Shown one piece after another: positions 16,343-49,294 of a stretch of 64,000 bases of DNA (the first letter of the stretch is position 1; each line of letters opens with the position of its first letter). The stretch lies in assembly GCA_964106645.2 (NCBI GenBank), contig OZ067039.1. The stretch is one strand, 5' to 3'. The position numbers were made by a program, and so were the translations under genes. The notes below the pieces were generated by a model that saw only the letters and a list, made by a program, of their open reading frames with translations, was not told the origin of the DNA and made no database searches. Origin of the DNA: Podarcis pityusensis (Eukaryota).

Positions 16343-16601
16343 CTGTATTTTTTGCTCTATCAGACTCACTTGTTCCCTCCTAAAAAGTAAGGGGAAATGT
16401 GTGTGCGTCTTATGGAGTGAATGCAGGCTGCGCAGCTATCCCAGAAGCCAGAACAGCAAGTGGGATCGCTGCTTTCACTGCGCAGCAATCCCTCTTGTTG
16501 TTCTGGCTTCTGAGATTCAGAATATTTTTTTTCTTGTTTTCCTCCTCCAAAAACTAGCTGCGTCTTATGGTCTGGTGCATCTTATAGAGCGAAAAATATG
16601 G
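16343..16601. mobile_element. Non-autonomous Tc2/pogo-like MITE, short variant with internal hairpin
   Basis: TA|CTGTATTTTT ... AAAAATATGG|TA. Subterminal sequence similar to 23850-24446. Internal 35-bp inverted repeat at 16438-16516. Confidence 0.8.
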
Positions 16602-17462: not shown

Positions 17463-17989
17463 CTTGAAACAAAAAGAAATGACCATGAAATCCTCCTCAG
17501 CAGAAAAACAATACCCATTTGCCTCCTCTTTTTCATATCCCTCCCCCCCTTTCAGAATTAATCACTGCAATATGGAACATATGCCCTTGTTGGAGGCCAT
17601 GAACCTGGAACATGAACCACGAGACACAGAGATTCTTCCTCTTCTGTGTGATAGTTTTAGCACCACAGAGAAGATTAAAGGTGCTCTTCAGAGTACTTCT
17701 TCAGATGTAGCAACTATTAAATCATTAGGAATGCTGGAGCAAACAACCTTTAATAATATCAACACTATGTTTGTCTGAGAAGTCAGCTACTTTGGCTTAA
17801 TATAGGGCACACTAAAAAGTTGAAGCATGAACTACATGCACTTGTTTCTTCAAACCGAAATAGATTTGGCAGGGGAAGAAACATAAGCTATCGTCGTCTG
17901 TTTCTGAAGGTGGCATTGCCAAGTTATCCCTAACCTTCAGGCAGCCCACTGACCCCCTCAAATGAACTCATCTGACTGCTTTGGCTTAC

Positions 17990-18118
17990 CTTTTCCACGG
18001 ATGCATACCGGCTAACCAGCTGCTTCCTCAGATCAGCAATGTGATGGTCATACTTCTTCATGTCTTTCTTGAAGTTTTCTCGGAAGTTGAGAAGGGGTTT
18101 CTCCACCTCTGCCTGGAG
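17990..18118 (-). CDS. GAS7: GAS7 coding exon (exon 10 equivalent): LQAEVEKPLLNFRENFKKDMKKYDHHIADLRKQLVSRYASVEK
   Basis: Visible in ORF 17930..18127(-). Acceptor tgtttcag, donor gtaagc. 129 bp. Confidence 0.97.
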
Positions 18119-19570
18119 CTGAAACAAAGGGCAAGGGAAATTTGGTTGAGGAAGGACTAATGGCTGATAATTGATACACCTCTATTCTGGCCATAATTTT
18201 TTCAAGGTGTATGGCATAGGAAATTTCCAGTTTGCGTAGTGTGGGTGACACACTCTATTTTTATTTATTTGTTTGTTTATTCATTCAAGTTAAATCCCAC
18301 CCATCCTTCTGAAGGAGTCCATGCTGGCAAATACATCCATAATGGAGCAATTGAGAAAAAAAGTAACCCCCCCCCCCAATTACAATTAAAAATATTTTCT
18401 CATTCACAGCATCTGGTGATTCCAGGATGCCAGGAGCACTATACTTCAAACATCAATTGGAATAGTAACAGCACCGGGGGAGAAAGTATTTTTAGCCCTG
18501 TCTCCAAGTTCTGTATTCCTGATTGAAATCTCCTCCTTGAAACTGCTATTATCCCCCCTCAGAGAAAAAGACAGATGCTTGTAACAGTATTGTATTTCCC
18601 CCAACAGGACTAGCAAGTGCAGGCGGGGTGTTGGTGGGGAATGGGTGTTCAAAAAATAAGGTGTTAAACAGCCTTTCCCCTCAGCAACGGTGTGCCAGTC
18701 AAAATGCTGCATATCCCAATTTAACAGAGAGAAAAGAGCTGGGAGATCTGGCCATGGATTTCCCGGTCACATCTGTTTTGGCTCTCAAACACAACGACAT
18801 CAGTACTGTCTGCAAAGCAGACCTATTCTGTCTCAACCAACTGCAGGAACGAAAAAGGCAACCAGGGGAAGGACATTTCCACCCCAAGTCATGACTTAGA
18901 TGCATGTGTACTACATAACCAGCCAAACACTGACTCAGTGTATATTTCAACATGTCTGCAACAATTGAAACCATGAAGCAGGCAAAATTTGTCTGCTGTC
19001 TAATCTCTTAACAACTTGATCACGAGAAGGGCAGTTATTCAGCTGAATCAATAGTCTTGGGACTGCTGAGGATTCCTTCCAGGCACAGACTGATGAAAAA
19101 AGGTCACTTGAACTAATAGTTTTCTTTCTAAAGAAGTGCTGTGATAGCATTGAAGGTAGTTAATTTCTACCCATCCCAGATTTTCAAACTGAATACCGCC
19201 CCAGCACACATATTATGCAGTAATCACACAACCCATAAACTAAACTCCACCCACATTAACTGAGCTTGCAGCCTTGAGCATTGTGATTCCAAGGAAACTG
19301 GCACATTTATCAGATGAAAATGGAAAAAAGTTATCTGCAGAACTTGTCTCTATCAGAGGATATGCACCCATTAAGTGATAATTCCACAATGTGCTAACCT
19401 ATTTTTCTGCTTATTTCTAAGCTGCTAACCTTTGAATAAGGCTGTTTATAATTTTTAATCGGAAGTGCAATTCAACGATAAAAGCTTTCAAATTTCACTA
19501 TTTTAATGCTTTAATCTCTCTCATGGACTTGACTCATAGTACTTGAAAAAGATCAACTTTGGCTGGTTCA

Positions 19571-23849: not shown

Positions 23850-24446
23850 CCGTATTTTTTGCCCCACAGGATGCACTTTTTCCCCTCCAAAAATGAAGGG
23901 GAAATGTGTGTGCATCCTATGGGGCGAATGCAGGCTTTCGCTGAAGCCTGGAGAGCTAGCGGCATTGGTGCACACCGACCCCTCTCGCTCTCCAGACTTC
24001 AGGAAGCTATCCGCAAGCCTTGTGAGCCCGCGGGAGTTCCTGCGGGCTCACAAGGCTTGCGGGCAGCAGCCTGCAGCCCGAAGCACGAGGCACCCTCCGG
24101 AGGGCGCCCCGTGCTTCGGGCGGGTGTCCGCAAGCCTTGCGCGCCGGCGGGAGGTCCCGCTGGGCGCGCGAGGCTTGGGGCGGCAACCTGCCGCCCGAAG
24201 CACGGGGAGCCCTCCGAAGGGCGCCCCGTGCTTCAGGCGGGTGTGCGCAAGCGTTGCGCGCCCGGCGGGAGGTCCTGCCGGGCACGCGAGGCTTGGGGCG
24301 GCAGCCTGCCCTTCGGGCAGGTGTGCGCAAGGCTTGGGGCAGCAGCTGCGGCGGGGGGGGGAAATAATTTTTTTTTATTCATTCCCCCCCCCAAAAAACG
24401 AGGTGCGTCCTATGGGCCGGTGCGCCCTATAGGACGAAAAATACGG
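23850..24446. mobile_element. Non-autonomous Tc2/pogo-like (Tc1-mariner superfamily) DNA transposon with internal 117-bp GC-rich tandem repeat
   Basis: TA|CCGTATTTTT ... AAAAATACGG|TA termini with TA TSD. Repeat units start at 24011, 24128 and 24245. Ends are shared with the copy at 16343-16601. Confidence 0.85.
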
Positions 24447-26573: not shown

Positions 26574-27408
26574 TAATAATAATAATAATAAAATAAAATT
26601 TTACTGATATCCCGCCCTCCCCAGCCGAAGAAGGGCTCAGAGTGGCTAACAACAGTAAAAGTAAACACAGCATTCTAAAATCAATTCATTCTAAAATCAA
26701 TTCAGAATCAAATTACCGTAATGGCAACCATTGGGCTAGAGTTCTAAGAGGATTACTAAAGGAGGGGGTCAGGCTGTGCCTTGGTCAAAGGCCTGGTGGA
26801 ACAGTTTTGTCTTGCAGGCCCTGCGGAAAGATGTCAAGTCCCACAGGGCCCTAGTCTCTTGTGACAGAGTGTTCCACCAGATCGGGGCCACAGCCGAAAA
26901 AGCCCTGGCTCTGGTTGAGGCCAGCCTAACCTCCCTGTGGCCCTGGACCTCCAAGATGTTTTTGTCTGAAGACCATAAGGTCCTCCGTGGGACATACCAG
27001 GAGAGGCGGTCCCGTAGGTACGAGGGTCCTAGGCTGTATAGGGCTTTAAAGGTTAAAACCAGCACCTTAAACCTGATCCTGTACTCCACCGGGAGCCAGC
27101 TGGTATAGCACTGGGTGAATGTGATCCCGCAGCGAGGACCCGTAAGGAGTCTCGCCACGGCATTCTGCACCCGCTGGAGTTTCTGGGTCAGTCTCTAGGG
27201 CAGCCCCACGTAGAGTGAGTTACAATAATCCAGTCTGGAGGCGACCGTCGCGTGGATCACAGTGGCTAGGTCAGGGCGAGAGGGGTAAGGAGCCAACTGC
27301 TTAGCTTGGCGGAGATGAAAAAATGCCGCCTTTGTTATAGCTGCAATCTGCGCCTCCATGGAAAGGGAGGTGTCGAAGATTATATCCAAACTCTTAACAG
27401 ATGGCACT
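26574..27408 (-). mobile_element. L2-clade LINE, 5'-truncated 3' fragment (ORF2 C-terminus, frameshifted)
   Basis: Peptides SRLDYCNSLYVGLP and QNAVARLLTG...WLPVEYRIRFKVLVLTFKAL...GPSYLRDRL are typical of L2 ORF2. (ATT)n tail at 26574-26600. Confidence 0.9.
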
Positions 27409-28176
27409 AGACTCAGTATCTTTGGTATTGTATCCCATATTACCTTACTGTACATCACTTCAATAGCTTCTTACTGTTCATGAATTTATAAAAACAACAA
27501 CTGCAGCCACTGAATATTTCAAACCATCTTATTATTGAGAAAAACATACTAACTCACTTGACTTATTTTGAACCCCCTATGACAGATATAAGCATGAAGT
27601 GTTGTTGCTGCCACAGTGACACAAGCTTGTGGCCAAGTGTTGGGCAGAGGTGCATGTCGGAAAGCATGAGAAGGAGGGCAGGTAACTCTGCAGGCATACA
27701 GCATCTTTTCTGTGTGAACCACAACATCTAGGGCAGATATCATATACTATTTTACCACGAATTTCACCAAAAAATGTATGTATGTGTTTCTAAACCTGAG
27801 CATTTCTACGGTGCTAACATAGCCACAAATTGCTGAATTTGGCAATTTGAAAATGCCGACTGAAAAACTTTTTAGCTGTTGATCCTTTTGCTGAATATAA
27901 ATGCTGTGTGTTCATGTTTGGATAAACCATTTGCAAAGCTTTAGATAAATGAGCTTATGAAAGTGAGAATAAGACACTGCTGGTAGTCTGTAGGAATATA
28001 AAGTAGTCAAGACAGAACAGGCCAAGGAACCCATCCATGCTAGTATTCTCCTTCCAAATTGTCAAGATCGGGTGTGCTTAAGTAAAAGCAAGTTATTTAC
28101 TAAGGGACTAATGGAAGCAGGTGTCTCACTAACGGAGGCAGAAACCAATGAAAGAAGAAGTGAATTTCCAAGTTAC

Positions 28177-30059: not shown

Positions 30060-30149
30060 CCAGAAATAATCGCAGTAGCTCCATTCAGAAGGTTTCAGCA
30101 ACTGCTGCTCTGGCATTGCGTCAGGGTGGGGGAACGTCACACAGTTTAT
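30060..30149 (-). CDS. GAS7: GAS7 coding exon (exon 6 equivalent): INCVTFPHPDAMPEQQLLKPSEWSYCDYFW
   Basis: Near-identical to the vertebrate GAS7 segment preceding the FCH/F-BAR domain. Acceptor tttgtcag, donor gtaagt. 90 bp. Confidence 0.97.
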
Positions 30150-31802
30150 CTGACAAAAAGGAAAGAGGAATACATTGGACGTGCAAAGCAGTTCAGGAAC
30201 ATGGATGCATGTAAACAAAAGCTGCATAAATGCAACACAGCTGGCTTAGGTTCTTGCTGAATGTAATGCTCGCTTTAACCAGGAGATGTCACAGAAGGCA
30301 GATGTAAGAGATTTTGTGTGGTTGAAAGTCGCTGCAATATCTAGGAAGCAGACTCTAAGCAAAACAGGGTCTCTGATCATCAAACCCTGCATGCCTGCTT
30401 CTTTTATTTAAAAAAAGAGGGAGGATAAAACTAAGAATGTGCAGTACTTATTGTAAGACTAAAAACGCAATCCTAGCTATGTCTACCTGGACTTACTTCT
30501 AAGCCCAAGTCCAAGCATGCATTGAATCCAATGGGGTTTATGGTCAGGGAAGTGGGGCTAGGATTGCGGTTTAAATCTTACTACCCTCAAAATTGTTTGG
30601 ATGTTCCTTCTTAAACAGGAACCTTCATGTTTGCCTTGCAATTTCACTTTAGTGATGAAATTCAAAAGACAACAACTTCACTAAAAATGTTTGGCTCTGT
30701 GGAAATTCCTCAAATGTTTCACCCAAACAGGAACCTCCATGTTTGCCTTATCATTTCACTTTTTGGTGAAATCTAGTAGCAGCTCTAGGTAAAACCATTT
30801 CTAACTTGGACCGGATGTCATTAAATGAGTTAAAGCTGCCTAAGGGATCTTACAAATGGAAAACCAAATTTAACACAACAGCCTATGCCAGAAGTACACA
30901 GAAGGTCCCAGTGAAGCTAATGGACACAATGGAGAGAAAACCAGATTAATAATAAAATCATTAGACTAATATTCAGATGTTGCACTTCAATGCATATTTT
31001 TTAAAAAGCGCAACTGAAAATTATTCCTCTCTGGATCCATAATTCACTAATTTAATTCATGAAGCCTGACAGAAAGCATTTATTTAAATTTATAATCCAC
31101 CCAACTGCTTCATCTTGGGACAAGAAACAGATACTATAGTGCATGCCAAAATGCAAAGTTCTCAACGGTTTAGAGAGATTAGTGGGCTTGAGCTTTGATG
31201 AAGCTTCCTAGTTAGAGAGCGACCAAAAAGACCTCCTTAAATGCCCTTACTGTGTTGTTGACAGTGTACTTGACAAACAGAAAGCACTATCAAGAAGCTA
31301 TAGGGGACATTTAAAATATAATCTGCAAGTGCTCACAAAAATTGGGAGGGAAAGGATGATCAAGTTATTGCATACAATTATTTTAAGCTATGAATCTCTT
31401 GGCCCTGTAAGGGGACTTGAGACATGTGTGTGTGATTCTCCTAATAACACCAGGACAAAATCAAGGATGTACAGGTGCCTATCTCCTTATTGCTATGGTG
31501 GCACTAAACCCAGTCCTGTTGTAGGGTACCTTGATAACCTCACTCACTGAAGAAGAAAAGGAGGGGAAGCCTTGTTCAAATGTCACCATTTTCCTGCCAG
31601 GGGAGAGGAAGAGCCTGCTTCTCTCTTTTTGAAACAAAGATGCTGGCTCTAGTGTTGGAGATGGATGGGGAAAGAACACACAGTTCAAAGAAAAATGTGT
31701 TTTTAACTAAATGTTCTCAGAAATGTGGAGGAGACGCTAGACTTGCCTCCTTTCTATAGAACCACACAACGGCTTGGATGGATGAGCAAACATACAGTAC
31801 TT

Positions 31803-31804
<2 letters not shown>

Positions 31805-31844
<40 letters not shown>
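31805..31844. repeat. (AT)n microsatellite
   Basis: Direct reading. Confidence 0.98.
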
Positions 31845-31848
<4 letters not shown>

Positions 31849-32262
31849 AACATTTTTTTAAAAAATAAACTTTTTAAATACACCCATGCAAGAAATATAA
31901 TACAAGCAGAAGACAGGGGGCTGCACATGCCATCCCGGTCCCAATAATCATCCCATGCACTTGCCACAATTGTCCAATGCAGAGTGAAGAAGGTATAAAG
32001 GCAGCTATTTGCATGCGTTCGCCTGAACTGTGCCACATGTTCAAGTGAACACAGATGGAAGCCTTATTCACACCATTCCCAACCAAAACAGTACGGCCAA
32101 GGACATGGGAAGGGGACGCTGTGAGTGGGGACGCTGTGCACAGCCCCATGTCACCTACTTGTGTTAATAGGCTCAATTGCCCAGACAAAGCTATCCAGAT
32201 TAGGGGCATGTGTGAACTTGCAATAGGCACTGCCCAACAGACAACTGGGACAGTGAAAGGTA

Positions 32263-32487
32263 CAGTGGTACCTCGGGTTACAAACACCTCGGGCTACAAA
32301 CACCTCAGGTTACAGACTCCGCTAACCCGGAAGTAGTACCTCAGGTTAAGAACTTTACCTCAGGATGAGAACAGAAATTGTGCGCTGGTGGTGCGGCAGC
32401 AGCGGGAGGCCCCATTAGCTAAAGTGGTATCTCAGGTTAAGAACGGACCTCCAGAACGAATTAAGTTAGTAACCAGAGGTACCACTG
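32263..32487. mobile_element. Tigger/pogo-like MITE
   Basis: TA|CAGTGGTACCTC ... GAGGTACCACTG|TA. Internal repeated tcaggttaagaac motifs. Confidence 0.85.
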
Positions 32488-33250
32488 TATATCTTTTCTG
32501 TTGTAGTTATGCTGACAATGCATTTGGATTTGTTTCACTTTTCCAGGGTATAGCTTGAAACACTACAAAATACCTATAAATTGGGTTGACCCGATAGCCA
32601 GATAGAACACATGCACAAAGAAGTCAAGGTGTCCAGCAGTCAAAGGTGATTCTGTAATATGAAGACTAAAAAACCATTGAGCTGGTTCAGACAATCATAT
32701 ATTGCTTTAATAAACCAAGATATGAATGAGCCTTTTCCTCTTTTCTTGCCCCTCCCTCTGGTACAAGCTATAATTAAATGAGGAAGCTTCTAACTAACTA
32801 CAGTTTCCTGTTAAGTCTGAACCAGGAAAACCTTGGAACAAGCCAGAATATTAAACAAACTTCAATTCATAGTTGAATACCCTGGCTTGTTCTAATGCTA
32901 GTAACCAGAGTTTCCCAGAATGAATAAAAACCAAAAACTAAGTTTAGAGACTTCCTGGTTTACATTGTGGCTCACTGAAAAGGAACAAAGGTGCTGGGTG
33001 TGTGGGCAAGAGGCTTGCTCATAACTTGGCTTCCTTAGGTAGAGATATGATCATCCAAATGTGGCCAGAAATTGGTCATAACCTGAATAGGAACACCACA
33101 GAAAAAGAAGTGTCCTTGCTGGTAATGCTAACAAGAGAGTGCACTGGAGTTGCTTTTATTAAATGGCAACAAGCAGAATTTTTATTTTATTTTTTGGCAG
33201 GGAGGAAAATGAACATCCATGAAAACTGGAAAGGTAACACAAAAGAAAGA

Positions 33251-33424
33251 TAAAAAAATCCTTCCAGTAGCACCTTTAAGACCAACTAAGTTAGTTCTTG
33301 GTATGAGCTTTCGTGTGCAAGCACACTTCTCATACCAAGAACTAACTTAGTTGGTCTTAAAGGTGCTACTGGAAGGATTTTTTTATTTTGACTATGGCAG
33401 ACCAACACGGCTACCTATCTGTAA
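33251..33424. mobile_element. Penelope-like retroelement insertion with inverted (head-to-head) pseudo-LTR fragments plus 3' tail
   Basis: Perfect 57-bp inverted repeat (33251-33307 / 33329-33385). 12-bp direct repeat ACAAAAGAAAGA at 33239-33250 and 33425-33436. Same family as 37855-38019. Confidence 0.8.
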
Positions 33425-33944
33425 ACAAAAGAAAGAGTGTTTCATTCAAGTCGTAGGATGGGATCACAGAAGTTATGAGACACTGGAATGCAAAGAACCA
33501 CAGCCAACATATGTAACTCTAAGCCTCTCATGAGGTTGTCAATTGCCAGAAAGGTCAACTTGCTTCATTTTCAGCAGAGAGGGTTTTAAAATATATATTT
33601 TAGCACTTGTTGGCACCTGAAGGGTGTCGCTGCATGGTGGATTATCACTTGCCTACAACATGGTTTGGAGACATTTCCAGATGTTTCAAATTTCTGATAA
33701 AACTTCTTAGCAGAGTATTTCCACTGGATGTGACCAAGTTTTAAGAGCACAATTTCTCATCCAAACTGCTGTAGGAGAAAATGCCACACTGGGAGTGTAT
33801 ATGCGAGACAGATCTTTAAGTCCTGTGTGCTGCAGCAGAGAAAACTGGAAGAGGAGCATATAAAGGAGCATTCGTGTCACAGGAAGACGCTAGGTAATTT
33901 TTAGACCTCGGACTTAATGGTCTTACATGCCTATCTTTTTAGAT

Positions 33945-34072
33945 CAGTGTCTCTCAAACTTGAGTCACCAGCTATTGTTGGACTACAGCTCCCATCATCC
34001 CACTAGCCCTGCTAGCTAGGGATGATGGGAGTTGTAGTCCAACAACAGCTGGGAACCCAATTTTGAGAAAAA
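33945..34072. mobile_element. hAT-like palindromic MITE
   Basis: gttggactacagctcccatcatccc...gggatgatgggagttgtagtccaac core palindrome. Confidence 0.7.
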
Positions 34073-34577
34073 TTACTTAGTTGTGAAACACAATCAACAT
34101 TTCTCCTCTCTCACCCACTATCCCCAGAAAGTTAGTAACTTCTGTATACTACCCATGAGAAAAATGGCTGTGTTCACACATACAGCTAAACCACAGTTTG
34201 GTGCAACAGGAATGGGCCCCTCAAGCTTATGACTACTCCTATGTGCTGTGAAGGACTTTTGACTGTGGTTTATTGACAAACAACAGTTTGCGTCGGTGTC
34301 AGAAAAGTCAAATGACTGAATGTGCTGTCCTGCAAATCTGGTAATCCCGCTTTACTGGAAGCACAAACCATAATTTGGCATTTCCAACAGTGAGACCAAC
34401 TTTGGTTGGCCTCTAAGCTACAGACAGAAGTCCTAGACTGTGATGCGCAGGGGGCAGACACAGGAGGAGGAGGCGAGAAGTGAACCAAGCAGTCCTTGAA
34501 GTTTGGCATTATGTGTGAATTCAGTCAGCTGAAAAGGGCACTTCATAACATATTTCTCAGAAGAAAGATGCAACTCC

Positions 34578-34710
34578 AGTTGACTCAGTTGGCTAGAGCA
34601 TGGTGATGGGTTCGATCCCCATATGGGCTGCCTGCATTTTCCTGCATTGCAGGGGTTTGGACCAGATGACCCCTGGGGTCCCTTTCCAACTCTACAATGC
34701 TATGATTCTA
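34578..34710 (+). mobile_element. tRNA-derived SINE with CR1-type 3' tail (POMSINE/Squam2-like)
   Basis: A box TGACTCAGTTGG (34581-34592), B box GGTTCGATCCC (34609-34619), CR1 tail ...ccaactctacaatgctatgattcta. Confidence 0.75.
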
Positions 34711-35124
34711 AGCGAACTCTTTGTGACATCCAATAGAAATCCCTTCTCAAAAAACAAGTGCTGGGATTGAGGAAAAGAGTGGGAGAGAACCTGTGGTGCG
34801 GTACGTGCATGTATGTGTTCTTTGCTGCCTCTCCAGGTCAAGCTCAGTGGTTCTGCCAAAAAATAATTTCACTGTGGTCAGGACACTGCATGGCAGATGC
34901 AACATTTGAATCCATTTGCCACTTGGATGAGATGGGCCATATAGAAAAACACCTGCACCACTGTTGCTGACCCCCCAGGAGGTGCAATATTAATGCAGAT
35001 ACTCAGAACCATGATACAGATGACCCACTTATGAGGCTGATTCCAAATATTACTGTAGCCTCAAAGAGCTTCAAAAAACGCAGTAATGATTCTTGACAAA
35101 GCCATTCACAAAGAGCAAGATTTT

Positions 35125-35281
35125 TTTATTTTATCCTGCCTTTCCTCCAAGGTGCTCAGAACAACCCCATGAATTCGGTCAGGCTGAGAGTTGGTGGGTG
35201 GCCCAGCACTGTCCAGTGAATTTCATGGCTTAGTGGGGATTTGAACCCTGGTCTCCCAAGTAACAGCACAACACTTTAACC
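35125..35281 (-). mobile_element. Older, degenerate Squam3/MIR-like SINE
   Basis: B box GGGTTCAAATCCC on the minus strand, CORE-like middle, A-rich 3' end. Confidence 0.55.
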
Positions 35282-36883
35282 CAGGGGTGCCTAACCGGGG
35301 CACCACAATGGATTGAATCATCCCTAACTCCAGCTGCAATGTAATTGTGCCTTAGGATTAAGGTAATCACCCCTTTCAGCCTTCAATTTTGTTACTACAT
35401 GTATGGCAGCTGAGCAGTAGTGATAAAACACACTGCTTCCGTTTCTTCAACTGCCTCTGACTGAATGGGGTTATCCCCACAGCTAGGTCTTCTTTACACA
35501 GCCAGTTGTTCTACAGTAACACCCCCTGGAGCCCCCTTAAGTTCTGGGTTTTGTTTTGTTTCATGTTGATGGGGTGAAGTATGGAGCGAAAAATGTCGAA
35601 ACAGCCCCAGACAGGATCTGAGGTTGCTGCTTTACATCCCTTTCAACTCAGAATAAGTGTAAGCCATTAAGAGAGTGCATTATTTCATGTGATCCACTCC
35701 ATAAAGTGCAAAATCCGGGGGGGGGGGGGGAACCTGCCTGAAGTCCAACACCCATACCAAATAAGCAGTTTTTGCTTGTGTTTTTTTCCTCTCTCTCGTT
35801 TTACAGAACCCAAACCGTGAAAGGGGGGTGAAAGAGGCAAAGGAAACACTGATGAAACATTCAAACTAAATTTCAAACCTGGGAAAACTGAGTGGCAGCA
35901 CCAAACATCAATCCTGTCACAAAGAAAACAGCACTGACACTAATCACCACCTCATATTCTAGTCCCCCCTAATGTTCTCTCCACCACCACTCCCGGTGCT
36001 CTAATTCACACTGAGATGTGTCATGTTGTTTCAACAAATTCCTTTCCACTGCTGTAGCTAGCAAAAGAGCGAACCTCACACTTCCACAGGGAAATGTCCC
36101 GTCCCCCCCGCTCTCTCGCTCTCTCTCTTAAATCATTGCAATCAAATCAAATATTTTGTTAACCATGGAGCCTGGATGGCTGGGCCAGGTTTCTGAGCAA
36201 TAATGGATAAGTTTTTGGACTTAAAGAGTCAAAAGAGGTTTGCCAGGATTCAAAGGCTTGCATCTCATCCTCTCCTACTGAGAAATATCTAGCATGTTCG
36301 CGACCTCAGCCAAAGTGCATACTACGACAACTTCACGGGGCATTTTTCAAAAAATATTCTTCATCTTTCTATGGATCTTTAGCCCCTTCAGTCATCCATC
36401 AAAGCTGCAAAGGAAGCCAGCCTTGGGGGAGAACCCTCACTGTCAACTTTTTATCATTGTGTGTGCTGCCCACAGGAACACTCCATTCTTAAGATGACTT
36501 CATTGGCTATTAATTGCTTGATCTACCCAGAAGCAACTTTGAACAAAAGGAAACACAGCTGCAACTATAATTTAAAAATCACAGCAGAAAGAAGTGCCCC
36601 CACCCTCTCCTTTTGCTTTCTGACATTTCTTTCCTGTCTCTCTTTAACAGGCTCTCTGCTAGCTTCAGCCTTTTAAAAATGGCTTCAATGCAGCTACTGC
36701 TGTGGAAAGCAGGCACCGTGTTTACATCTGGAAAACATGAGGCAGACCCTTTCACACGGATTCAACACACCAACACATACACAGACGGACTGACGGCTCT
36801 CCTGCCCTGCAATGCTACTTGCTCTGGTGACTAGATCACCATAGCAACTGGACTGGTGATCATCACGGTGGGATTCTACTTAC

Positions 36884-36937
36884 CGTGAACGTGGTCTCCT
36901 TGTTCTGCTTTCGAGTAGGTGAGGGGGACCCAGGACT
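36884..36937 (-). CDS. GAS7: GAS7 coding exon (exon 5 equivalent): SPGSPSPTRKQNKETTFT
   Basis: Resembles human NLGSSSPSKKQSKENTIT. Acceptor ctctctcctcag, donor gtaagt. 54 bp, phase 0 to phase 0. Confidence 0.93.
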
Positions 36938-36988
36938 CTGAGGAGAGAGGCAAGAGGCATCATCAAAACTGCACTCCACATCCGACAT
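36884..36988 (-). CDS. GAS7: Alternative first coding exon of short GAS7 isoform (isoform-a-like): MSDVECSFDDASCLSPQ+SPGSPSPTRKQNKETTFT
   Basis: ATG at 36988-36986 in accATG context, in frame and contiguous with exon 5. The peptide resembles the human GAS7 isoform a N-terminus MSNMENSFDDVSCLSPQ as I recall it. Summed exons give 1011 nt = 336 aa + stop. Confidence 0.85.
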
Positions 36989-37700
36989 GGTATGTATTCT
37001 GAGTTACTGGAAGGTGTATGTGTGTGCTTGTGTGTGCGTGTGTGGGAAGCAGGGGTGCTCAGTGCTTTGTGCAAGCCAAATTGGAGGAGATTCCCTTTCT
37101 GCCCTGCTTTCTGGCTTAGCCTCTTTCCATGCCCCAGAGGTGTCACAGTTCAACTCTTGCATGGGAGACTCCTGCACTGTGCTCACGAAGCAGCACACGA
37201 GCTCTGTACAGCCAGATAATTCATCCGAAACACGGCGACACCTCCCCTTCCAATCAGTGCCTAGCTTTGGAATTAACTCTTCCACTGCGTGCCAACTCTG
37301 AAGCAGGGCTCTTTAGCTACTGTGCCTAAAAGAGTTATTCGAAGCTCTGCTTTACGTTTCGCATGCAGTCCAGCTGCTGTACACAAAGGCTTCCTTTGCT
37401 GTTAGGTTCATATCGCAACTGCACACACATCTCATCCGCTCGCCCCACTGCCCCCCTCCCACTCCAGCTTTAAAAGCCGGGACTCCAGAAGCAAGGTGAG
37501 GAGGAAGTCTCTGCAGTGTTGTTGCTAACACACTGCAGGCATCCCCAAGGCTTCCTTCTGCATCCATCTGCAAATTAGCAAAAGCATCAAAACAACACAA
37601 CAAAAAAGCCACCTGCATCAGACTGACAGTGAATGGAATGACCCAAAACAGAAGTATAGTGCACATGGAGTCAGCAGCCACCTATTTTAAAGTGTTTGTT
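36989..37700 (-). promoter_or_regulatory. Putative internal promoter / 5' UTR of the short GAS7 isoform
   Basis: Lies directly upstream of the isoform-a-like ATG. No recognisable repeats, locally more CpG, GC-box-like tract cgccccactgccccctccc at about 37441-37460. The TSS cannot be placed from sequence alone. Confidence 0.5.
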
Positions 37701-37854
37701 TGGCATGCCATTCTGTCTGAGGCTACCGTGCAACAGTTAACAACATGATGGAACATGTCCTGCTTCACCATTCATTGTAACCTTATTGCTTTTATTTATG
37801 GGGGTTTTGTCCTTTGTAGTCCTTACCAGGGTTATCTCTCACAAAGAAATATTT

Positions 37855-38019
37855 GTGAGAGATATTTGAGTAATACTCCTCCCCACCTTCTCACTATATA
37901 GAAGGATCTGGCAACTTCTGTTTCAGTGTATCTGAAGAAGTGTGCTTGCACACGAAAGCTCATACCAAGAACTAACTTAGTTGGTCTTAAAGGTGCTACT
38001 GGAAGAATTTTTTTTATTT
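37855..38019 (+). mobile_element. Penelope-like retroelement (PLE) pseudo-LTR fragment containing a hammerhead ribozyme motif
   Basis: Flanked by 12-bp direct repeat AAAGAAATATTT (37843-37854 and 38020-38031). Contains CTGAAGA...GAAA core. Shares about 79 bp near-identity with the insertion at 33251-33424. Confidence 0.8.
37928..37965 (+). ncRNA. Minimal type I hammerhead ribozyme motif (PLE-associated)
   Basis: GUAU-CUGAAGA-A-GUGUGC(UU)GCACAC-GAA-AGCU-C-AUAC. Stem I GUAU/AUAC, core CUGANGA, 6-bp stem II, GAAA, palindromic AGCU helix III, UC cleavage site after C37961. Confidence 0.75.
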
Positions 38020-38265
38020 AAAGAAATATTTATGCCACACAGCCCAGTTTTACACAGAGTAACAAAAAAGTACCACAAGGACAAACATAGCACAACAACT
38101 TTATTCTAGGAAGAAGACTGCCTTAACACTCTCTGATAGAGAACAGTTCCCCCCGCATGTCTCCTTAATTTTTATGTGCAAAACTCCAGAGATCTAGAAA
38201 TGCCACAATTTCTTTAGGCACCATTTTCTACCAGCTATGACATCTCTCCCAGAAACCAGTCTATA

Positions 38266-38507
38266 CAGTGGTACCTCGGGTTACATACGCTTCAGGTTAC
38301 ATGCGCTTCAGGTTACAGACGCTGCTAACCCAGAAATAGTGCTTCAGGTTAAGAACTTTGCTTCAGGATAAGAACAGAAATCGTGCTCCGGCGGCCCGGC
38401 GGCAGCAGGAGGCCCCATTGGCTAAAGTGGTGCTTCAGGTTAAGAACAGTTTCAGGTTAAGAACAGACCTCCGGAACGAATTAAGTACTTAACCCAAGGT
38501 ACCACTG
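38266..38507. mobile_element. Tigger/pogo-like MITE (same family as 32263-32487)
   Basis: TA|CAGTGGTACCT ... AGGTACCACTG|TA. Colinear with the 32.3-kb copy. Confidence 0.85.
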
Positions 38508-40140
38508 TAGGTGCTATGGTGCCTTTTGAACACAAGCCTTCTTGCCTTTCTCTTTATGTCCCCCCCAGACAGCTGCTATTGTTCTTTAAAATATCCTCAC
38601 ATATGTGAAACGGAATCCTTCAATACCCCTCAAAGGAAGCTTCTTGCTGATCCAGAATCTGAAAATGAGTCCATTTCCCTCAGATGTTCTAATCTCATGC
38701 TGACAAGGCAAGTAAATAAATTTTTAAATATCCCTCTTTGTTAGCATTAGTTGCCCACGCATAGCAGAAAAAAGTATGCCCCAAACAGTAGATTGGCATT
38801 GGTCCAGCCGCAAAAGGAGAGCTGACGCTAGCACCTGCGGAAAGAAGAACTGTGTAATGAAGAACTCTAAATCACATTCCCTCTCCAAAATAAATGATGC
38901 TGCTTGTAACTCCCCTGAGCCTGATCTTTAAGGGGGGAAAATATGTTATGGAGTTCCCCTCTACAATGCACTTTCATAATAAACTGCTAGACACAGTAGC
39001 AAATATCAAGTCCTTGAGCTTCCAAACACTCAAGTTTTCTTGGTTAACACTGGCACACCTTAAATTCTTTCAACTACTTTCTTGAAGTCAAATTAGCAAA
39101 GCATCCTGCATTCTTGGTCTCACTCAGCTCCATGCTTTCCAAGGGGCCCACTAGGTTCCCCACTGAACCAATACAAGAGCACTCACCTGTGTTGCAAGCT
39201 GCTGATTCATTTACGGGCCTATTGCCCAAGAACTGTTGAAGCTGCCAATTAAGAACCTGCAAAGCCATTAAGTCAGAGAGTAGCTGTTCCCTGGACCCAC
39301 CAGCCATGCCCTCAAGTAAGACTAGAAAAGATCAGTAGGATCTTAAAGCTATCAAGATACTCTTGATCCAGTATCCAAAACAGATCACCATCCAGTGTAC
39401 TACAAAGAAGCAGCAGCACAAGTCAAGGTGGACTCATGCAAGAATCACCTACAGATCAAGGTCCAAGAGTTTCCAAAGTGAGATATGCAACGCTACAGGC
39501 AGCACTGTAAAGAAGGAGATGTGTTGTATACTCTCGCTTAGGAAAGGCAGAGGTGAATTACTTCCTCAACTACCTCTGCCTCTCTTCATAAAGACACTAC
39601 TGTGTGATAACAAACTACTCACAGGGGCAAAGAAGAACAACTTTGCCAACAATTTAGAACTGGCTTCTCAACCTCAGAGAGAGCAAGGGAGGAAGAGAAG
39701 ATTTCAGAAGATCACTCTCTTGGTGTGCCCACTCCAGCCATATGCTTATTTTAGAGGCAGTGAAGACACGATGCAAAATCTAGTTTTATTCTTCGCCTCT
39801 TTCCTGGTGGCATCATTAAGGGGAGGAAATGAGGGGAATGAGCAGGGAAGAAGAAGAGGGAAAAAGCACCCACACAGTCTACAAGGTCCTCAGAGCTTTT
39901 AAAACCAAGTTTTCCGTGTTCTCACATATGACCTGCTTGACCCAAACAGGGCTCAGTGAACTGAAAGGAGAAACATTTTCCGAACCATGGTCACGTAACA
40001 AATAATTGTCTTATCAATGCACACTTTCTTCTCTGACATTTTGCAACACTTTTTAGTCAGCTCTTAAGAGTTTTTTTGTGAACTACTCTCACACATGCAT
40101 GAACAACTCACCCATAGGAACACAGGAAGCTGCCTTATAG

Positions 40141-40390
40141 AGGAGGAGGAGAAGAAGAAGAGTTTGGATTTGATATCCTGCTTTATCACTACCTGAAGGA
40201 GTCTCAAAGCGGCTAACATTCTCCTTTCCCTTCCTCCCCCACAACACTCTCTCTGTGAGGTGAGTGGGGCTGAGAGAAGTGTGACTAGCCCAAGGTCACC
40301 CAGCAGCTGCATGTGGAGGAGCGGAGACGCGAACTCGGTTCCCCAGATTACGAGTCTACAGCTCTTAACCACTACACCACACTGGCTCTC
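40141..40390 (-). mobile_element. Near full-length Squam3-like tRNA-derived SINE
   Basis: 5' GAGAGCCAGTGTGGTGTAGTGG with A box at 40379-40369 and B-box variant GAGTTCGCGTC at 40336-40326. CORE-like GTGACCTTGGGCTAGTCAC, (CTT)n tail. Confidence 0.85.
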
Positions 40391-42917
40391 ACACCTCTAG
40401 AGAGTCACACCTCTAGGTCATCGAGATTCTAGCTCACTACTGTCTTCACTAACCGGCAGCTGCTGTCCAGGATTCTGGTTGGGGGTCTTTCCCCGAACCC
40501 TACCCAGAGATGCTGGGAATTGAACCTGGGGCCATATGAATGCAGAGCAAATGCCCTACCATTGAGCTATGGCCCTTCCCCACGGAATGGCTAGTTCAAT
40601 GACTTCATGGCAGTGGCTCCAGTACTGGGTTTATACAGGGAAGGTGCAGGTTCTAATCTCTGCTCAGCTACATTCCTCCCTGGGTTGTCTTGAGCAAGTC
40701 ACTATCTTGTCTTCCCAGCCCCCCTGCACACACAGAGTTGCTGTGCACGTGCTCATTTTTATTTAAATCTCAGGAGGATGGGTGGGATAAAAACAAAATA
40801 AATGTTATGAGCTGCAAACACAGCTGGAACATATTGCGTTGAAATGATGTCAGCAGATATGAAAGTGCCGTTTGATCTGCGATGGCTGTTTGCACAATAC
40901 AAGAAAGTACTTGATATTACAGCCATCAAGCGATGAACAGAAATGTGTGAGTCCCTGCCCAGGAACATTTTTTAATCATTGTTAGTGTAGAATAAGATTG
41001 AAGAAAGCTGGTTTTCGTTTTTTTAAAACAACAACAACAACAACCCAGACTTAATGTGGCTTTTCAAACTGAATGTACAGATACAGGAAATGCAAAAAAA
41101 GTCAGTGAGGGGTGGGGGTGGGGGAGGAGAAATGCAAAAATCAATTTTAGCATCATTTGCGAAATTGGCCTACGTGATTCCTTAAAGCACAGAGAACTGG
41201 GAGAAAGCAATATTCTATGAGTAGCAGTATGCAGTATGCTTGAAACAGCAACTTGCCAATGCCCTTTTGCGAGCTCATGGCTTTAAATGACCAGATTTAT
41301 TTAAACACACATGAATGACTTAACAGAGATTTGGATCTCAGGTTCAACCCTGCATTCACTCAAACATGCTAGCTCTTCATAATTCAGCTATGTCCAGCTG
41401 TCATGCCTTAGATTTCCAGAGGACCCCAAATAATGTTAATTAGTTGTTGGAAGCTACAATGAACAGTAGCTTGTACTCTACAAATGCTGTTTGCTAAGGT
41501 AAATCCCTAGATTTTCTTAGACAGCGGAAAAGCATCAGTAACCAAGAGTGCTTACAGATGGTGACAATTAAGCAGTATGCAAGCAGTGCTGTTCTGCTTT
41601 ACGCTGTAGGTGGGACAGCAATGTCTGGAATCCAAATAACATTCTATAGCCGAGTGGGAAGCCACTCCTTCCCCAACCCCAAATCTTGTGTGTAGCAATT
41701 TTCATTGGGACCATTCTGTGGGATGTACTGCAAGTTGGGATGTGCAGGGTTGTGGAGAGAGAAAAGGAACACAAAAGCAATGCTATTTGAGAAGGGCACA
41801 GTTAAAGTGATAGAGCTGATTCCGAGAGAGATGAGACAGACTATAAAGAAGGAAATTGCTAGAACAAAATCTATGAAGGCCGTAACTGGCCTGTATAAGC
41901 AAGAACAGCTGTGTGATGGATCACCTACATGGGATATGTTGCACAGTGCTTACATTGTGATAACAAACCCCAAACAAATAAAAAACAATTTTTTTCTGAG
42001 TTCTTTAAAAAAACAACCCCCCCCAAAATGGAAGCTGAATAGAGAAAAGTTGGGAGGAGGACGTTTTATCACTATGTTATGCAGACATCCCATAAACAGT
42101 GAGTGAACAAAGCATGGTTGTTCCACAATAAGTGACCAGTGTGGAAGCAGCCCAAATTACATAACAGGCTTTAATGCAAACTTCAATAATATAGTAATAA
42201 TGGCAAGAGGGGTAGAGCTATACAGATATTCAGCATATTTGAATTGAGTGGAAAAAATAAAGCTCTAGAATGTTTATGACCTAAGATTTAACTCACATAT
42301 TTCTGCCAAAAAAAAACCACCTACAAAAAAACACAACAACTTCTAACAAGTTGGTGAATTTTTTCTCCAGTACTGTAGTGGGTAAAGGAGACTTTGAGAC
42401 AGTGTGGAATGCATTGCTATGAAATATAGCTGTAATCTTCCAAGATTTAGGAAAGAATGCATGGATAATAAAAATCATCTTGATTATAGTGTCTCATGGT
42501 ACAATAGCAAGAGGATGCTCACTTAAACAGCTACAAGAAGTGCAACAAATTCCAATTCAATGTTGACAAAAAAGAAAGCACGTTGGGTACCTAGCCCGAA
42601 AAACTCCATACTACAAAATGATCACAGATGGCTAAAGTTGAGAAAGATCAATAAAAGCTTCCAGTGATAAAAATAGAAGGGGGGGAGGGGAGGGAGAGGG
42701 AGGGGGGAGAGGGAGAGAGAGTGTTCAGGAATACAAGGACTTTGAGGTTCATAGCACAATTTGGACTAAAAGACTGAACTATCATTGCTGCACTTCTAAG
42801 TGAACGAAGACTGCTTTCAGTCCTTCATCCTACTGGAAGTATTCACAAGCACTATTTCTAAACAATCATAGAAAACAAAAGCCTTCATCTACATCCAGGA
42901 ATATTTTCTGTGCTTAC

Positions 42918-43003
42918 CTGGGGATCACTGCTGACTTTGCGGAGACTCATGTGGCTTGGTTCTAGTTGGGGTACCAAAGTTCCTGGTATGTGATACCCAT
43001 TCA
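42918..43003 (-). CDS. GAS7: GAS7 coding exon (exon 4 equivalent): (V)NGYHIPGTLVPQLEPSHMSLRKVSSDPQ
   Basis: Resembles human VNGYHASGTPAHPPETAHMSVRKSTGDSQ. Acceptor tttacag, donor gtaagc. 86 bp, phase 1 to phase 0. Confidence 0.93.
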
Positions 43004-43759
43004 CTGTAAAGTAAAGATACAAAGTTTAAAAGGAGAAACTGGCGTAATTCAAAAAGATGGGGGGGAAATGGGTTTACCATCACTGAGGCTCTTCATCAAA
43101 CTTAAGTAATTTACCTGGCATACATGACCAAGTGTAAATGTATAATTCAAAATGTCACCACAAATACAGCAAGTCTACATGAAATACATAATATATCGAT
43201 CGATCGATCTATGCAGAAATACATGCAAGCAGGCAGCAATTTTAGCAACTAGAACACATCAGTTGCAAAGACATTATTGAGATAGATCAACTATAAAACA
43301 CAAGCCTCCGTAAACTCTGCAGCAAGGTCAGGCAACTCCACTTTAAATGAAATATCTAATTATCTCAAGAAATTTATGCAATAAAATTCAGTATGTCTTT
43401 ATATTTTTGAAAGTAAAACTGTCATCACGCTGTAGTTTGCATAGCCGCCAACAGGAAGTCACACCAACTACAGCATGATGATAGAACAACAGGCAGGCGA
43501 ACAAGCAAGCAGCATGGTTGGTGGCGAGTCAGGCGAGCCGATGAGGAAGGAGCAATGTTTAAAGGCAAGTAGAAGAAGGATGGCTTGGCAAACCATTCTC
43601 TGAGCCTTCTTCCCTGCCATTATACATCTCTGGAGTATTATAAAAGAACATGTAAAAACAAAAGCTCTGAGAACCTTAACACAACTTGAAAATTTATTAA
43701 GCACAATGGGTAGAGAGGGGAAAGGATGAGTTTCTAAACTGTATTCTATATTGCATAAT

Positions 43760-44582
43760 ATAGCTTACGGATATATGGAACCCCTTTAAAAGATATGGGA
43801 ACTAGATGCTGCCACACAAATTCTTCCCAAAGACTGGAAAAAAAATATCTGGGAATTGCGCTCCTTAAGATCTGCTCGCAGTTTGCTTATGGAAAACCTC
43901 TTAACATTACCTCTTAACAGGTAGTATTGCACTCCTCTGCAAATCTCAAAAAAATGTTTTCTTCTATATCACCTTATTGTTGGAGGGGTGCAATGAACTT
44001 GGTATGTATTATAATTTATGGTGGGAATTGTCAGTTGGTGCAAGATTTTTGGAATTTAATTCTGACAGAAATGATAAATATTATTAAGGAAACAATTGTT
44101 TGTTGTCCAAAATTACAGTTACTGAGTATTTTTTATGATACCAATGTAAATATATTGCCAAAATATTTTGTCTTGGCAGCACAAATAATAAATGCAACTC
44201 AATGGAGAACGGCCCAAAATCTTACACTGGGCGCTTGGTACTGCTCACTCTGGAATATAAGTATACAGTAATGTAGAAAATCAGACATAATTTGAGATTT
44301 TGACAAGGACTAGAACCTCCAGACACTTTTTATATGATTTGGCATATACAGCGGAACTGTCATTTTCAAGGCAGCCCTCGTCACAAGCCTGGGAAATCTG
44401 GAACTGTACTTTTATGATCTGATAAAAGTTGATAGTCTTTACTTGGGACTTTGTTATTTTAACTCATGTACAACCACTCACTCTATGTGTCTATTTTATA
44501 GTTTCGTTTTTCATCGTTTTTTTGTCTGTTGTTATAATTGTTCTCTCTGTTTTATATACATTATAAAATGAAATAGAAATAA
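43760..44582 (+). mobile_element. Highly degenerate L1-like LINE 3' fragment
   Basis: Residual peptides CWRG...VQDFWNLI...LAAQIINATQWR...W. T-rich 3' UTR and A-rich end. Confidence 0.55.
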
Positions 44583-44828
44583 ATTTTACCCCCCCCCCCC
44601 CAAATATCTGGAGTGACATTTAAAGGAGGGTTTGGCAAATGGCTCTGTAGAGCATCCACCTCTCTGTTAAACATTTAACAAGCTGTGACAGAACGGTGTG
44701 TGTGTTTGGGGCAAGCTGAGCAAAGGACTGGGTGAAATGTGGGGACAGGGAAAGAGGTAAAGGGGGTTGACCAAGGGCTAGCAAGCAGAGCAGGTGGGGA
44801 CAGCATCCTCTAGTACATTCATATTACT

Positions 44829-45100
44829 GTAAAGGTAAAGGGATCCCTGACAATTAAGTCCAGTCGCGAACGACTGGGGTTGCGGCACTCACCTCACTTT
44901 AAAGGCTGAGGGAGCCGGCATTTGTCCGCTTCCGCAGACAGTTTTTCTGGCTCATGTGGCCAGCATGACTAAGCCGCTTCTGGCAAAACCAGAGCAGCGC
45001 ACGGAAATGCTGTTTACCTTCCTGCCGGAGCGGTACCTATTTATCTACTTGCACTGGCATGCTTTTGAACTGCTAGGTTGGCAGGAGCAGGGAGTGAGCA
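44829..45100 (-). mobile_element. Sauria SINE (Squam1-like), 5'-truncated
   Basis: (ACCTTT)n tail seen as gtaaaggtaaagg on the plus strand. Diagnostic body motifs tcatgtggccagcatgact and gtacctatttatctacttgca. Confidence 0.85.
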
Positions 45101-45555
45101 AATTTTAGCTTATCAGGCTCCCCCACCACATCATTTTGTAGGGGACTTTGGGTGTATTACCATTTTTTTGCTCAGAAAGTATATGATGCTGTGACACCAT
45201 CTGTAAAAACAAAACCAGAATTGCATGGTAGAAAGAGATTAATGACTGATCTAGAAGCATCCCCACGCCTTTTTTGTTGCTAAAATCTGCAGTTGGCTCT
45301 CAAAGATCAGCACCATAGACTTATATAAGCACATGGTTGATAGCCAAGACAGAGCTCATGGGAGTATAGAAAAAAACATGTCCTACATGTGCCATAACTT
45401 GATCTAGGAAGTGCCATGCACTACGCTCCAAGCACCACTTTAAATACCAATCAATGGAGATGTCACAGGTATTAGCCACTTCGGTACAAACCGTGAAGAG
45501 TGTATGTGTGTTTATTTCAGGAAATCTAATGCGCGCTGCCTAATTTGCCCCCTAC

Positions 45556-49158: not shown

Positions 49159-49294
49159 CAGCCTTTCTCAACCTTTGGTTCCCAGGTGTTGTTGGACTAC
49201 AACTCCCATCATTCCTAGCCAGCATGGCCTGTGGTCAGGGATGATGGGAGCTGTAGTTCAAGAACCTGTGGAGCCCCAAGGTTGAGAAAGGCTG
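49159..49294. mobile_element. hAT (Charlie-like) palindromic MITE
   Basis: CAGCCTTTCTCAACCTT ... AAGGTTGAGAAAGGCTG TIRs. Approximate 8-bp TSD cataggac/cataagga. Confidence 0.8.

Follow-up and report, generated by a model that had tools for sequence, protein, structure and literature searches.

A perfect hairpin at 33251-33424 of the window (the whole stretch of 64,000 nucleotides of Podarcis pityusensis DNA analysed here) raises the question of how two opposed copies of one element came to be joined, and in particular whether the join, which lies beside a predicted hammerhead cut, records reverse transcription that ran to the 5' end of a ribozyme-cleaved RNA, as the initial annotation had proposed. 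The two arms (left, minus strand, 33251-33307; right, plus strand, 33329-33385) are reverse complements, identical at 57/57 positions around a 21-nt loop, and the unit is flanked by 12-bp, A-rich target site duplications (TSDs; ACAAAAGAAAGA, plus strand, 33239-33250 and 33425-33436) that allow no extension on either side; the anatomy first described for arms, loop and TSDs was confirmed. The left arm is an inverted, tailless copy that runs from the cut region of the element to its U-tract, and the inverted copy continues through the loop and a short overlap (33308-33330, minus strand), taking in GAAA, helix II and the late part of the core. The right arm is a direct copy, followed by a Penelope-type tail of 39 nt (33386-33424, plus strand), or of 35 nt if a 4-nt overlap is assigned to the arm. 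The tail thus adjoins the short arm, while the loop belongs with the arm that has no tail. Extended without gaps, the arms reach 61 nt at 98% identity. The insert measures 174 bp in total and consists of two short pseudo-LTR (pLTR) ends without ORF or body. As RNA, the hairpin has a predicted fold of -119.2 kcal/mol (z -15.1, equalled by 0/200 shuffles) and ranks first among the 12 inverted repeats of the window (at least 25 nt, arms at most 500 nt apart); no stable stem-loop was predicted for the tail.

The segment 33251-33424 is a Penelope-like retrotransposon insertion and an ordinary product of its family. Inverted pLTRs with a tail of 30-40 bp are described as the typical layout of EN+ Penelope-like elements (PLEs; PMC8557442), and the origin first suggested for the locus, an inverted pseudo-LTR with a short tail, matches this published layout. 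The hallmarks of the class are present, namely an inverted 5'-truncated copy adjoining a direct copy, a 30-40-nt tail at one end, a TSD at an AT-rich target with an empty site, and a hammerhead motif in the pLTR, intact in a second copy and broken in the hairpin. As in the published examples, the copies stand head-to-head with 5' truncation, a one-ended tail, a TSD and a palindrome at the junction (PMC8557442; PMC3846280), whereas the lack of ORF and body and the TSD of 12 bp, compared to 8-10 bp in the rotifer examples (PMC3846280), set the hairpin apart. Opposite-strand hammerhead pairs, 100-700 bp apart, were noted previously in Schistosoma mansoni (PMC4209133). A MITE or other DNA transposon with terminal inverted repeats was rejected, as the 39-nt tail lies between right arm and TSD and a tailless single-arm copy is known. 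Retrozymes are direct tandem repeats with a hammerhead in each; this class was rejected as well, the arms being head-to-head and the hairpin holding no complete hammerhead. No complete core of a minimal type I hammerhead was found on either strand of the hairpin: the core in the inverted part is broken and CUG(A) is absent, the minus strand lacks C3 and is short of one core base, and in the predicted fold of the GAS7 strand the cut triplet is paired within the stem. An Rfam scan of the 64-kb window returned 0 matches at gathering score.

The intact motif is found in a second copy of the same family, direct and tailless, at 37843-38031 (plus strand; 12-bp TSDs at 37843-37854 and 38020-38031). 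Compared with the hairpin arms, this copy 2 shows a single aligned difference and a U-tract of another length, and its segment 37868-38019 was used as coordinate ruler for the hairpin and for the joints of other family members. Its minimal hammerhead motif (37928-37965, plus strand) comprises a helix I of 4 bp, CUGAAGA, an extra A, helix II and GAAAGCUC. The predicted cut is at 37961/37962, equivalent to 33331/33332 in the hairpin, with C17 at 37961; the numbering, which we take to be the customary one for C17 and the cut position, agrees with the description in PMC4209133. With CUGANGA and GAAA, a short helix I, an extra nucleotide before G10.1-C11.1 and palindromic 15.2-16.2 (AGCU), copy 2 resembles the minimal type I hammerheads of metazoan PLEs, in which helix II is likewise the longer helix (PMC4209133), whereas neither hairpin arm holds the whole core; at 5-6 bp, helix II of copy 2 is shorter than the 7-8 bp of the S. 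mansoni minimal hammerhead (PMC4209133). The hammerhead fold (-6.8) is not the predicted minimum (-7.8), and Rfam gave no hammerhead match on copy 2, with three weak unrelated matches. A helix between 37921-37933 and 37991-38004, predicted with pair probabilities of about 0.4-0.97, would mask helix I and C3/U4; it did not exceed shuffles (z -1.46 and -0.06). At its 5' junction, copy 2 opens with 10 bases (37855-37864) that are the reverse complement of the flank at 37833-37842 and, judged by their letters, are templated fold-back filler. A 72-nt intron beginning at 37855 was rejected, the letters there being the inverted copy of the flank.

The reality and age of both insertions were examined in four runs, all as contigs rather than reads, compared over 32900-38250: X1 and X2 from organism A, X3 from organism B and X8 from organism C. 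In X3 and X8 (flank divergence 0.8% and 3.0%, respectively), a single contig leads from 33238 directly into 33425 and one TSD remains. In X1, which may be the sample from which the window came, one contig runs from the left flank into the inverted arm (to 33276) and another from the tail (from 33401) into the right flank. X2, from another sample and study, has a 72-nt contig with the left junction (depth 6.1, 0 differences) and a second contig with 37 unplaced letters, the exact length of 33202-33238; this match in length, together with the filled left junction, makes it likely that X2 is heterozygous for the hairpin insertion. Since two related organisms have the site empty and organism A likely includes a heterozygote, the hairpin insertion is real and very young. 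The recency first read from the zero mismatches therefore stands on the empty sites, the search for which succeeded in the related organisms of X3 and X8 and likely also in X2 of organism A, but does not follow from the arms, since 0/57 mismatches by itself bounds their divergence only at less than about 5%. It is scarcely credible that the palindrome is an artefact of assembly: short-read assemblies do struggle with tandem and inverted Penelope structures (PMC8557442), and among the contig pieces listed none spans the central junction, whose letters consequently rest on the window sequence, but both flank junctions are present in X1 contigs, the left one recurs without differences in a separate sample and study, and the empty site retains precisely one TSD. 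The site of copy 2 is empty in 4/4 runs, both runs of organism A included; copy 2 is a second young insertion, rarer than the first, 4.4 kb from the hairpin and likewise with a 12-bp TSD.

The hairpin sits in an intron of GAS7. Gene identity and strand are set by a matching exon at 17981-18121 (minus strand; PDB 6IKN chain A, E 1.7e-19), and segments near 30,100 and 45,600, recognised by their motifs, are presumably the exons that flank the hairpin site. As the GAS7 exons are on the minus strand, the pre-mRNA carries the reverse complement of the hairpin, which folds too (33230-33445, -118 kcal/mol), and by this model a long dsRNA stem, a possible substrate of ADAR or Drosha, would form in GAS7 pre-mRNA, as the initial annotation had anticipated. 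With a young allele and a very abundant family, there is no sign of a selected role. The TSD and the end of the tail make an acceptor-like site in GAS7 orientation (33419-33436, minus strand, 13/15 pyrimidines); the stretch 30300-45500 has 18 sites of this kind, this one included. Further inverted repeats that would fold in the pre-mRNA as well are found at 33952-34068, 49159-49294, 16438-16516, 32261-32489, 38264-38509 and 23984-24238; these six are likely MITE-type and GC-rich repeats, and 33952-34070 stands at very high depth and matches four other places in the window. Minus-strand open frames at 26772-27470 resemble what we take to be the C-terminal region of a LINE reverse transcriptase. 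As an allele, the hairpin insertion is a young marker of an ordinary kind, and its polymorphic site allows GAS7 to be compared with and without a 57-bp stem in its intron.

At the central junction, the inverted part reaches 33330 (equivalent to 37936, inside CUGAAGA) and the direct part extends back to 33329 (equivalent to 37959), the two sharing CT at 33329-33330. Several elements of the original description are borne out by these positions: the join runs through a 'ct' microhomology (37959-37960), the right arm begins within 1-3 nt of the predicted cut, and the inverted copy of the ribozyme does break off inside CUGAAGA, although stem II and the last part of the core form the loop rather than belonging to the left arm. 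The microhomology and C17 both lie 5' of the predicted cut and the 3' cleavage product begins only at 37962, so a cleaved template cannot give either; 'cleaved RNA' and 'ct microhomology' are mutually exclusive, barring untemplated bases that match by chance. The direct arm starts before, rather than at, the first base after C17, and run-off of the reverse transcriptase at the 5' end of a cleaved RNA, as originally proposed, is not supported by this start. The hairpin is likely not a record of ribozyme cleavage.

Joints of other family members, taken from contigs rather than reads, were compared on the same ruler, using those listed by the tool's own choice: 15 of 331 joint rows, 13 of them in the element (the two in other repeats were left out). 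A further 12 of the 187 rows that carry inserted letters were listed, and every one of them lies in the element. These rows give 22 distinct joints, 20 inversions and two go-backs. Both arms reach 5' of the cut in 17/20 inversions listed, and in the remaining three both ends lie 5-31 nt 3' of it. One inversion, from 33305 to 37931, is tabulated at C17 (37961) with 28 inserted letters; by their sequence these look like a diverged antisense continuation of helix II, and this joint was left out of the 15 short-arm ends counted. None of these 15 lies within 3 nt of the cut among the joints listed; if 10% of short arms ended there, 0/15 would have P = 0.21, and a minority class of joints at the cut is possible. 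In one listed go-back, the sense segment terminates 3 nt away from the cut, at 37959. The breakpoint peak at the hammerhead cut that the initial annotation led one to look for did not appear among the joints listed, 1/20 inversions having an arm end within 3 nt. Arm ends at or after 37959 carry one extra mapping tie, and joints at the cut may be under-listed; the listed short-arm range of 37936-37956 lies near the best-resolved zone and for that reason is no evidence of clustering.

The direct arms, on the other hand, share an upstream edge, which is the part of these results worth following. Among the joints listed, 16/18 uniquely placeable starts fall in 37926-37931 (plus strand), a zone of 6 nt that lies 31-36 nt upstream of the cut, and the other two are at 37917 and 37922 (P = 1.6e-7 against a uniform distribution over 37915-37935, before a 16-fold window correction). 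Mapping ties do not create this edge, since starts from 37868 to 37932 each have one placement, and it is independent of loop size, since the partner ends spread over 21 nt. Several listed joints stand at 10-33x flank depth and may share descent from few masters. An X1 record shows 8 differences in 82 nt between the family and copy 2 upstream; starts far upstream may be hidden, as the family may diverge from copy 2 there. Also in X1, a loose end at 37869 is a near-perfect palindrome with letters unlike 37855-37867, likely an inversion junction farther upstream in the element. The summed depth at 33377, about 3,700 to 40,000x flank depth, is to be read as 'very many' and not as a copy number. 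Pattern scans for relatives gave 0 and 0 matches in viral sequences and 0 in genome contigs; the single metagenome match (L001, 1001-1046) was dismissed as chance, since it falls in coding DNA that is unrelated and has no hammerhead core.

The reading we favour, with a probability of roughly 0.7, is a young PLE insertion in which both nicked strands primed cDNA on uncleaved RNA and the opposed cDNAs were joined via the 2-nt microhomology. Following a 12-bp staggered nick, each target strand would prime its own cDNA, on separate RNAs or on tandem repeats, with the inner tail boundary (the U-tract) as the starting point of the top-strand cDNA and the outer boundary as that of the bottom-strand cDNA. 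Both would run toward the RNA 5' end near element position 37925, and host end-joining would trim the opposed cDNAs and join them through CT. Most listed joints retain the edge at 37926-31 on one arm, whereas the hairpin copy would have been trimmed beyond it, which makes the closeness of its join to the cut likely incidental. Two cDNAs are the simplest source of a structure in which the short arm bears the tail while the loop goes with the arm that lacks one. The end of the top-strand primer matches the start of the tail at 3/4 positions; the bottom-strand primer of copy 2 showed no match, and the fold-back filler of copy 2 fits the end-joining step. The proposed two-strand priming, the microhomology join and the TSD are reminiscent of L1 twin priming, in which both target strands prime cDNA and the products are joined through microhomology between TSDs. 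The two parts of a twin-primed L1 copy non-overlapping stretches of one RNA, whereas those of the hairpin overlap by 57 nt and hence need two RNAs or tandem repeats. A related parallel is PAc (Poseidon_Ac) of Anolis carolinensis, a different family studied in vitro, whose protein, a predicted dimer, nicks and extends both strands from two initiation sites, one at each boundary of the tail, takes unprocessed RNA as template, does not need cleavage for insertion, and is accompanied by no RNA-seq reads ending at the cut (PMC11167929). The hairpin family shares with PAc an AT-rich target, ends bounded by the tail, a hammerhead immediately 5' of the initiation sites and a template that is apparently uncleaved; it differs in sequence and lacks an ATG where helix II starts (PMC11167929).

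Two other origins of the join were weighed against this two-strand priming. It is highly improbable that synthesis of the tailed cDNA ended by run-off at the 5' terminus of an RNA cleaved by the hammerhead and that this cDNA then joined an inverted copy. The start of the direct arm 1-3 nt from the predicted cut invites this explanation, as do the go-back end at 37959 and the inversion row at 37961 among the joints listed, and the anole ribozyme cleaves in the presence of the protein (PMC11167929); a minority class of such events is compatible with 0/15. Run-off would nevertheless require an untemplated base that happens to equal C17 in addition to a chance 2-nt overlap, and 17/20 inversions listed pass the cut with both arms. 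In vitro, moreover, minimal hammerheads show no activity as monomers and little as dimers (PMC4209133), and the anole findings on uncleaved templates point the same way. A palindrome made from a single template, either by self-priming of an antisense transcript or by re-mobilisation of a palindromic master, is improbable to a lesser degree. Head-to-head palindromes of rotifer Penelope elements were ascribed to antisense self-priming (PMC3846280), several listed family joints stand at multi-copy depth, and the 10-nt filler of copy 2 implies that fold-back synthesis happens at these sites. A simple fold-back of either cDNA, however, cannot leave the tail on the short arm alone (fold-back of one cDNA was itself rejected on the asymmetry of the arms: the loop would then lie on the strand made first, and only the letters present in that strand could be copied back, so that neither strand alone yields this shape), and a re-mobilised master explains the hairpin only if its truncation fell precisely on the inner tail boundary, the point at which copy 2 ends too.

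Under two-strand priming, the family edge would correspond to where cDNA synthesis stopped, and the pile-up likely marks an RNA 5' end. We lean toward a TATA/initiator transcription start as the nature of that end, on the basis of a candidate TATA-like box, TATATAGA (37895-37902, plus strand, 7/8 to TATAWAWR), whose first T lies 30 nt before A37925, the A of a candidate initiator-like TTCAGT (37922-37927, plus strand). The TATAWAWR and initiator words are those we assume to be standard and were picked after the site was seen; of 127,840 window positions, 0.05% carry a TATA and initiator pair at such spacing, and 0.9% the TATA-like word by itself. In a rotifer Penelope element, the pLTR has been reported to contain a putative TATA and initiator (PMC3846280). 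Against a TATA-driven start, the Penelope promoter of Drosophila virilis is TATA-less; its intron lies 46 bp after the start site (PMC2377424). The same letters may be read as a 3' splice acceptor ending at 37926, and an edge at 37926/27 that reflects such an acceptor at the foot of helix I, with spliced or splicing-processed templates, is unlikely. Pyrimidine tract and CAG fit, and the D. virilis Penelope intron likewise ends at the 5' end of helix I (PMC4209133), but a tract with 7/10 pyrimidines is found at 3.4% of window positions, against 0.05% for TATA plus initiator, and the inserted letters at the edge differ between the joints listed, so that no constant upstream exon 1 is seen among them. 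Tentatively, and a little short of even odds, the thousands of palindromic insertions may serve as a genomic 5' RACE, their junctions mapping a TATA/initiator start 1-3 bases before helix I while a two-headed complex primes both strands at the tail boundaries near the 5' end of uncleaved RNA. If true, the ribozyme would lie right where the transcript begins, and its action would not be part of integration.

The origin of inverted pLTRs and tails and the role of the hammerhead are named as open points in the papers on these elements. The layout of the hairpin is already known; the mapping of junctions to a fixed point near helix I may be new, as no inversion-junction mapping to such a point was found in the open literature text (subscription papers and figures lying outside it) and no mapping of inversion junctions or of 5' ends of genomic copies was found in text of PMC11167929; supplementary Fig. 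S2 of that paper, a map of genomic ends, may bear on how new the edge is. If the edge holds, a single assembly would provide a base-level map of in vivo cDNA starts and stops, and the hairpin family would argue that cleavage is not the step that fixes the ends of insertions.
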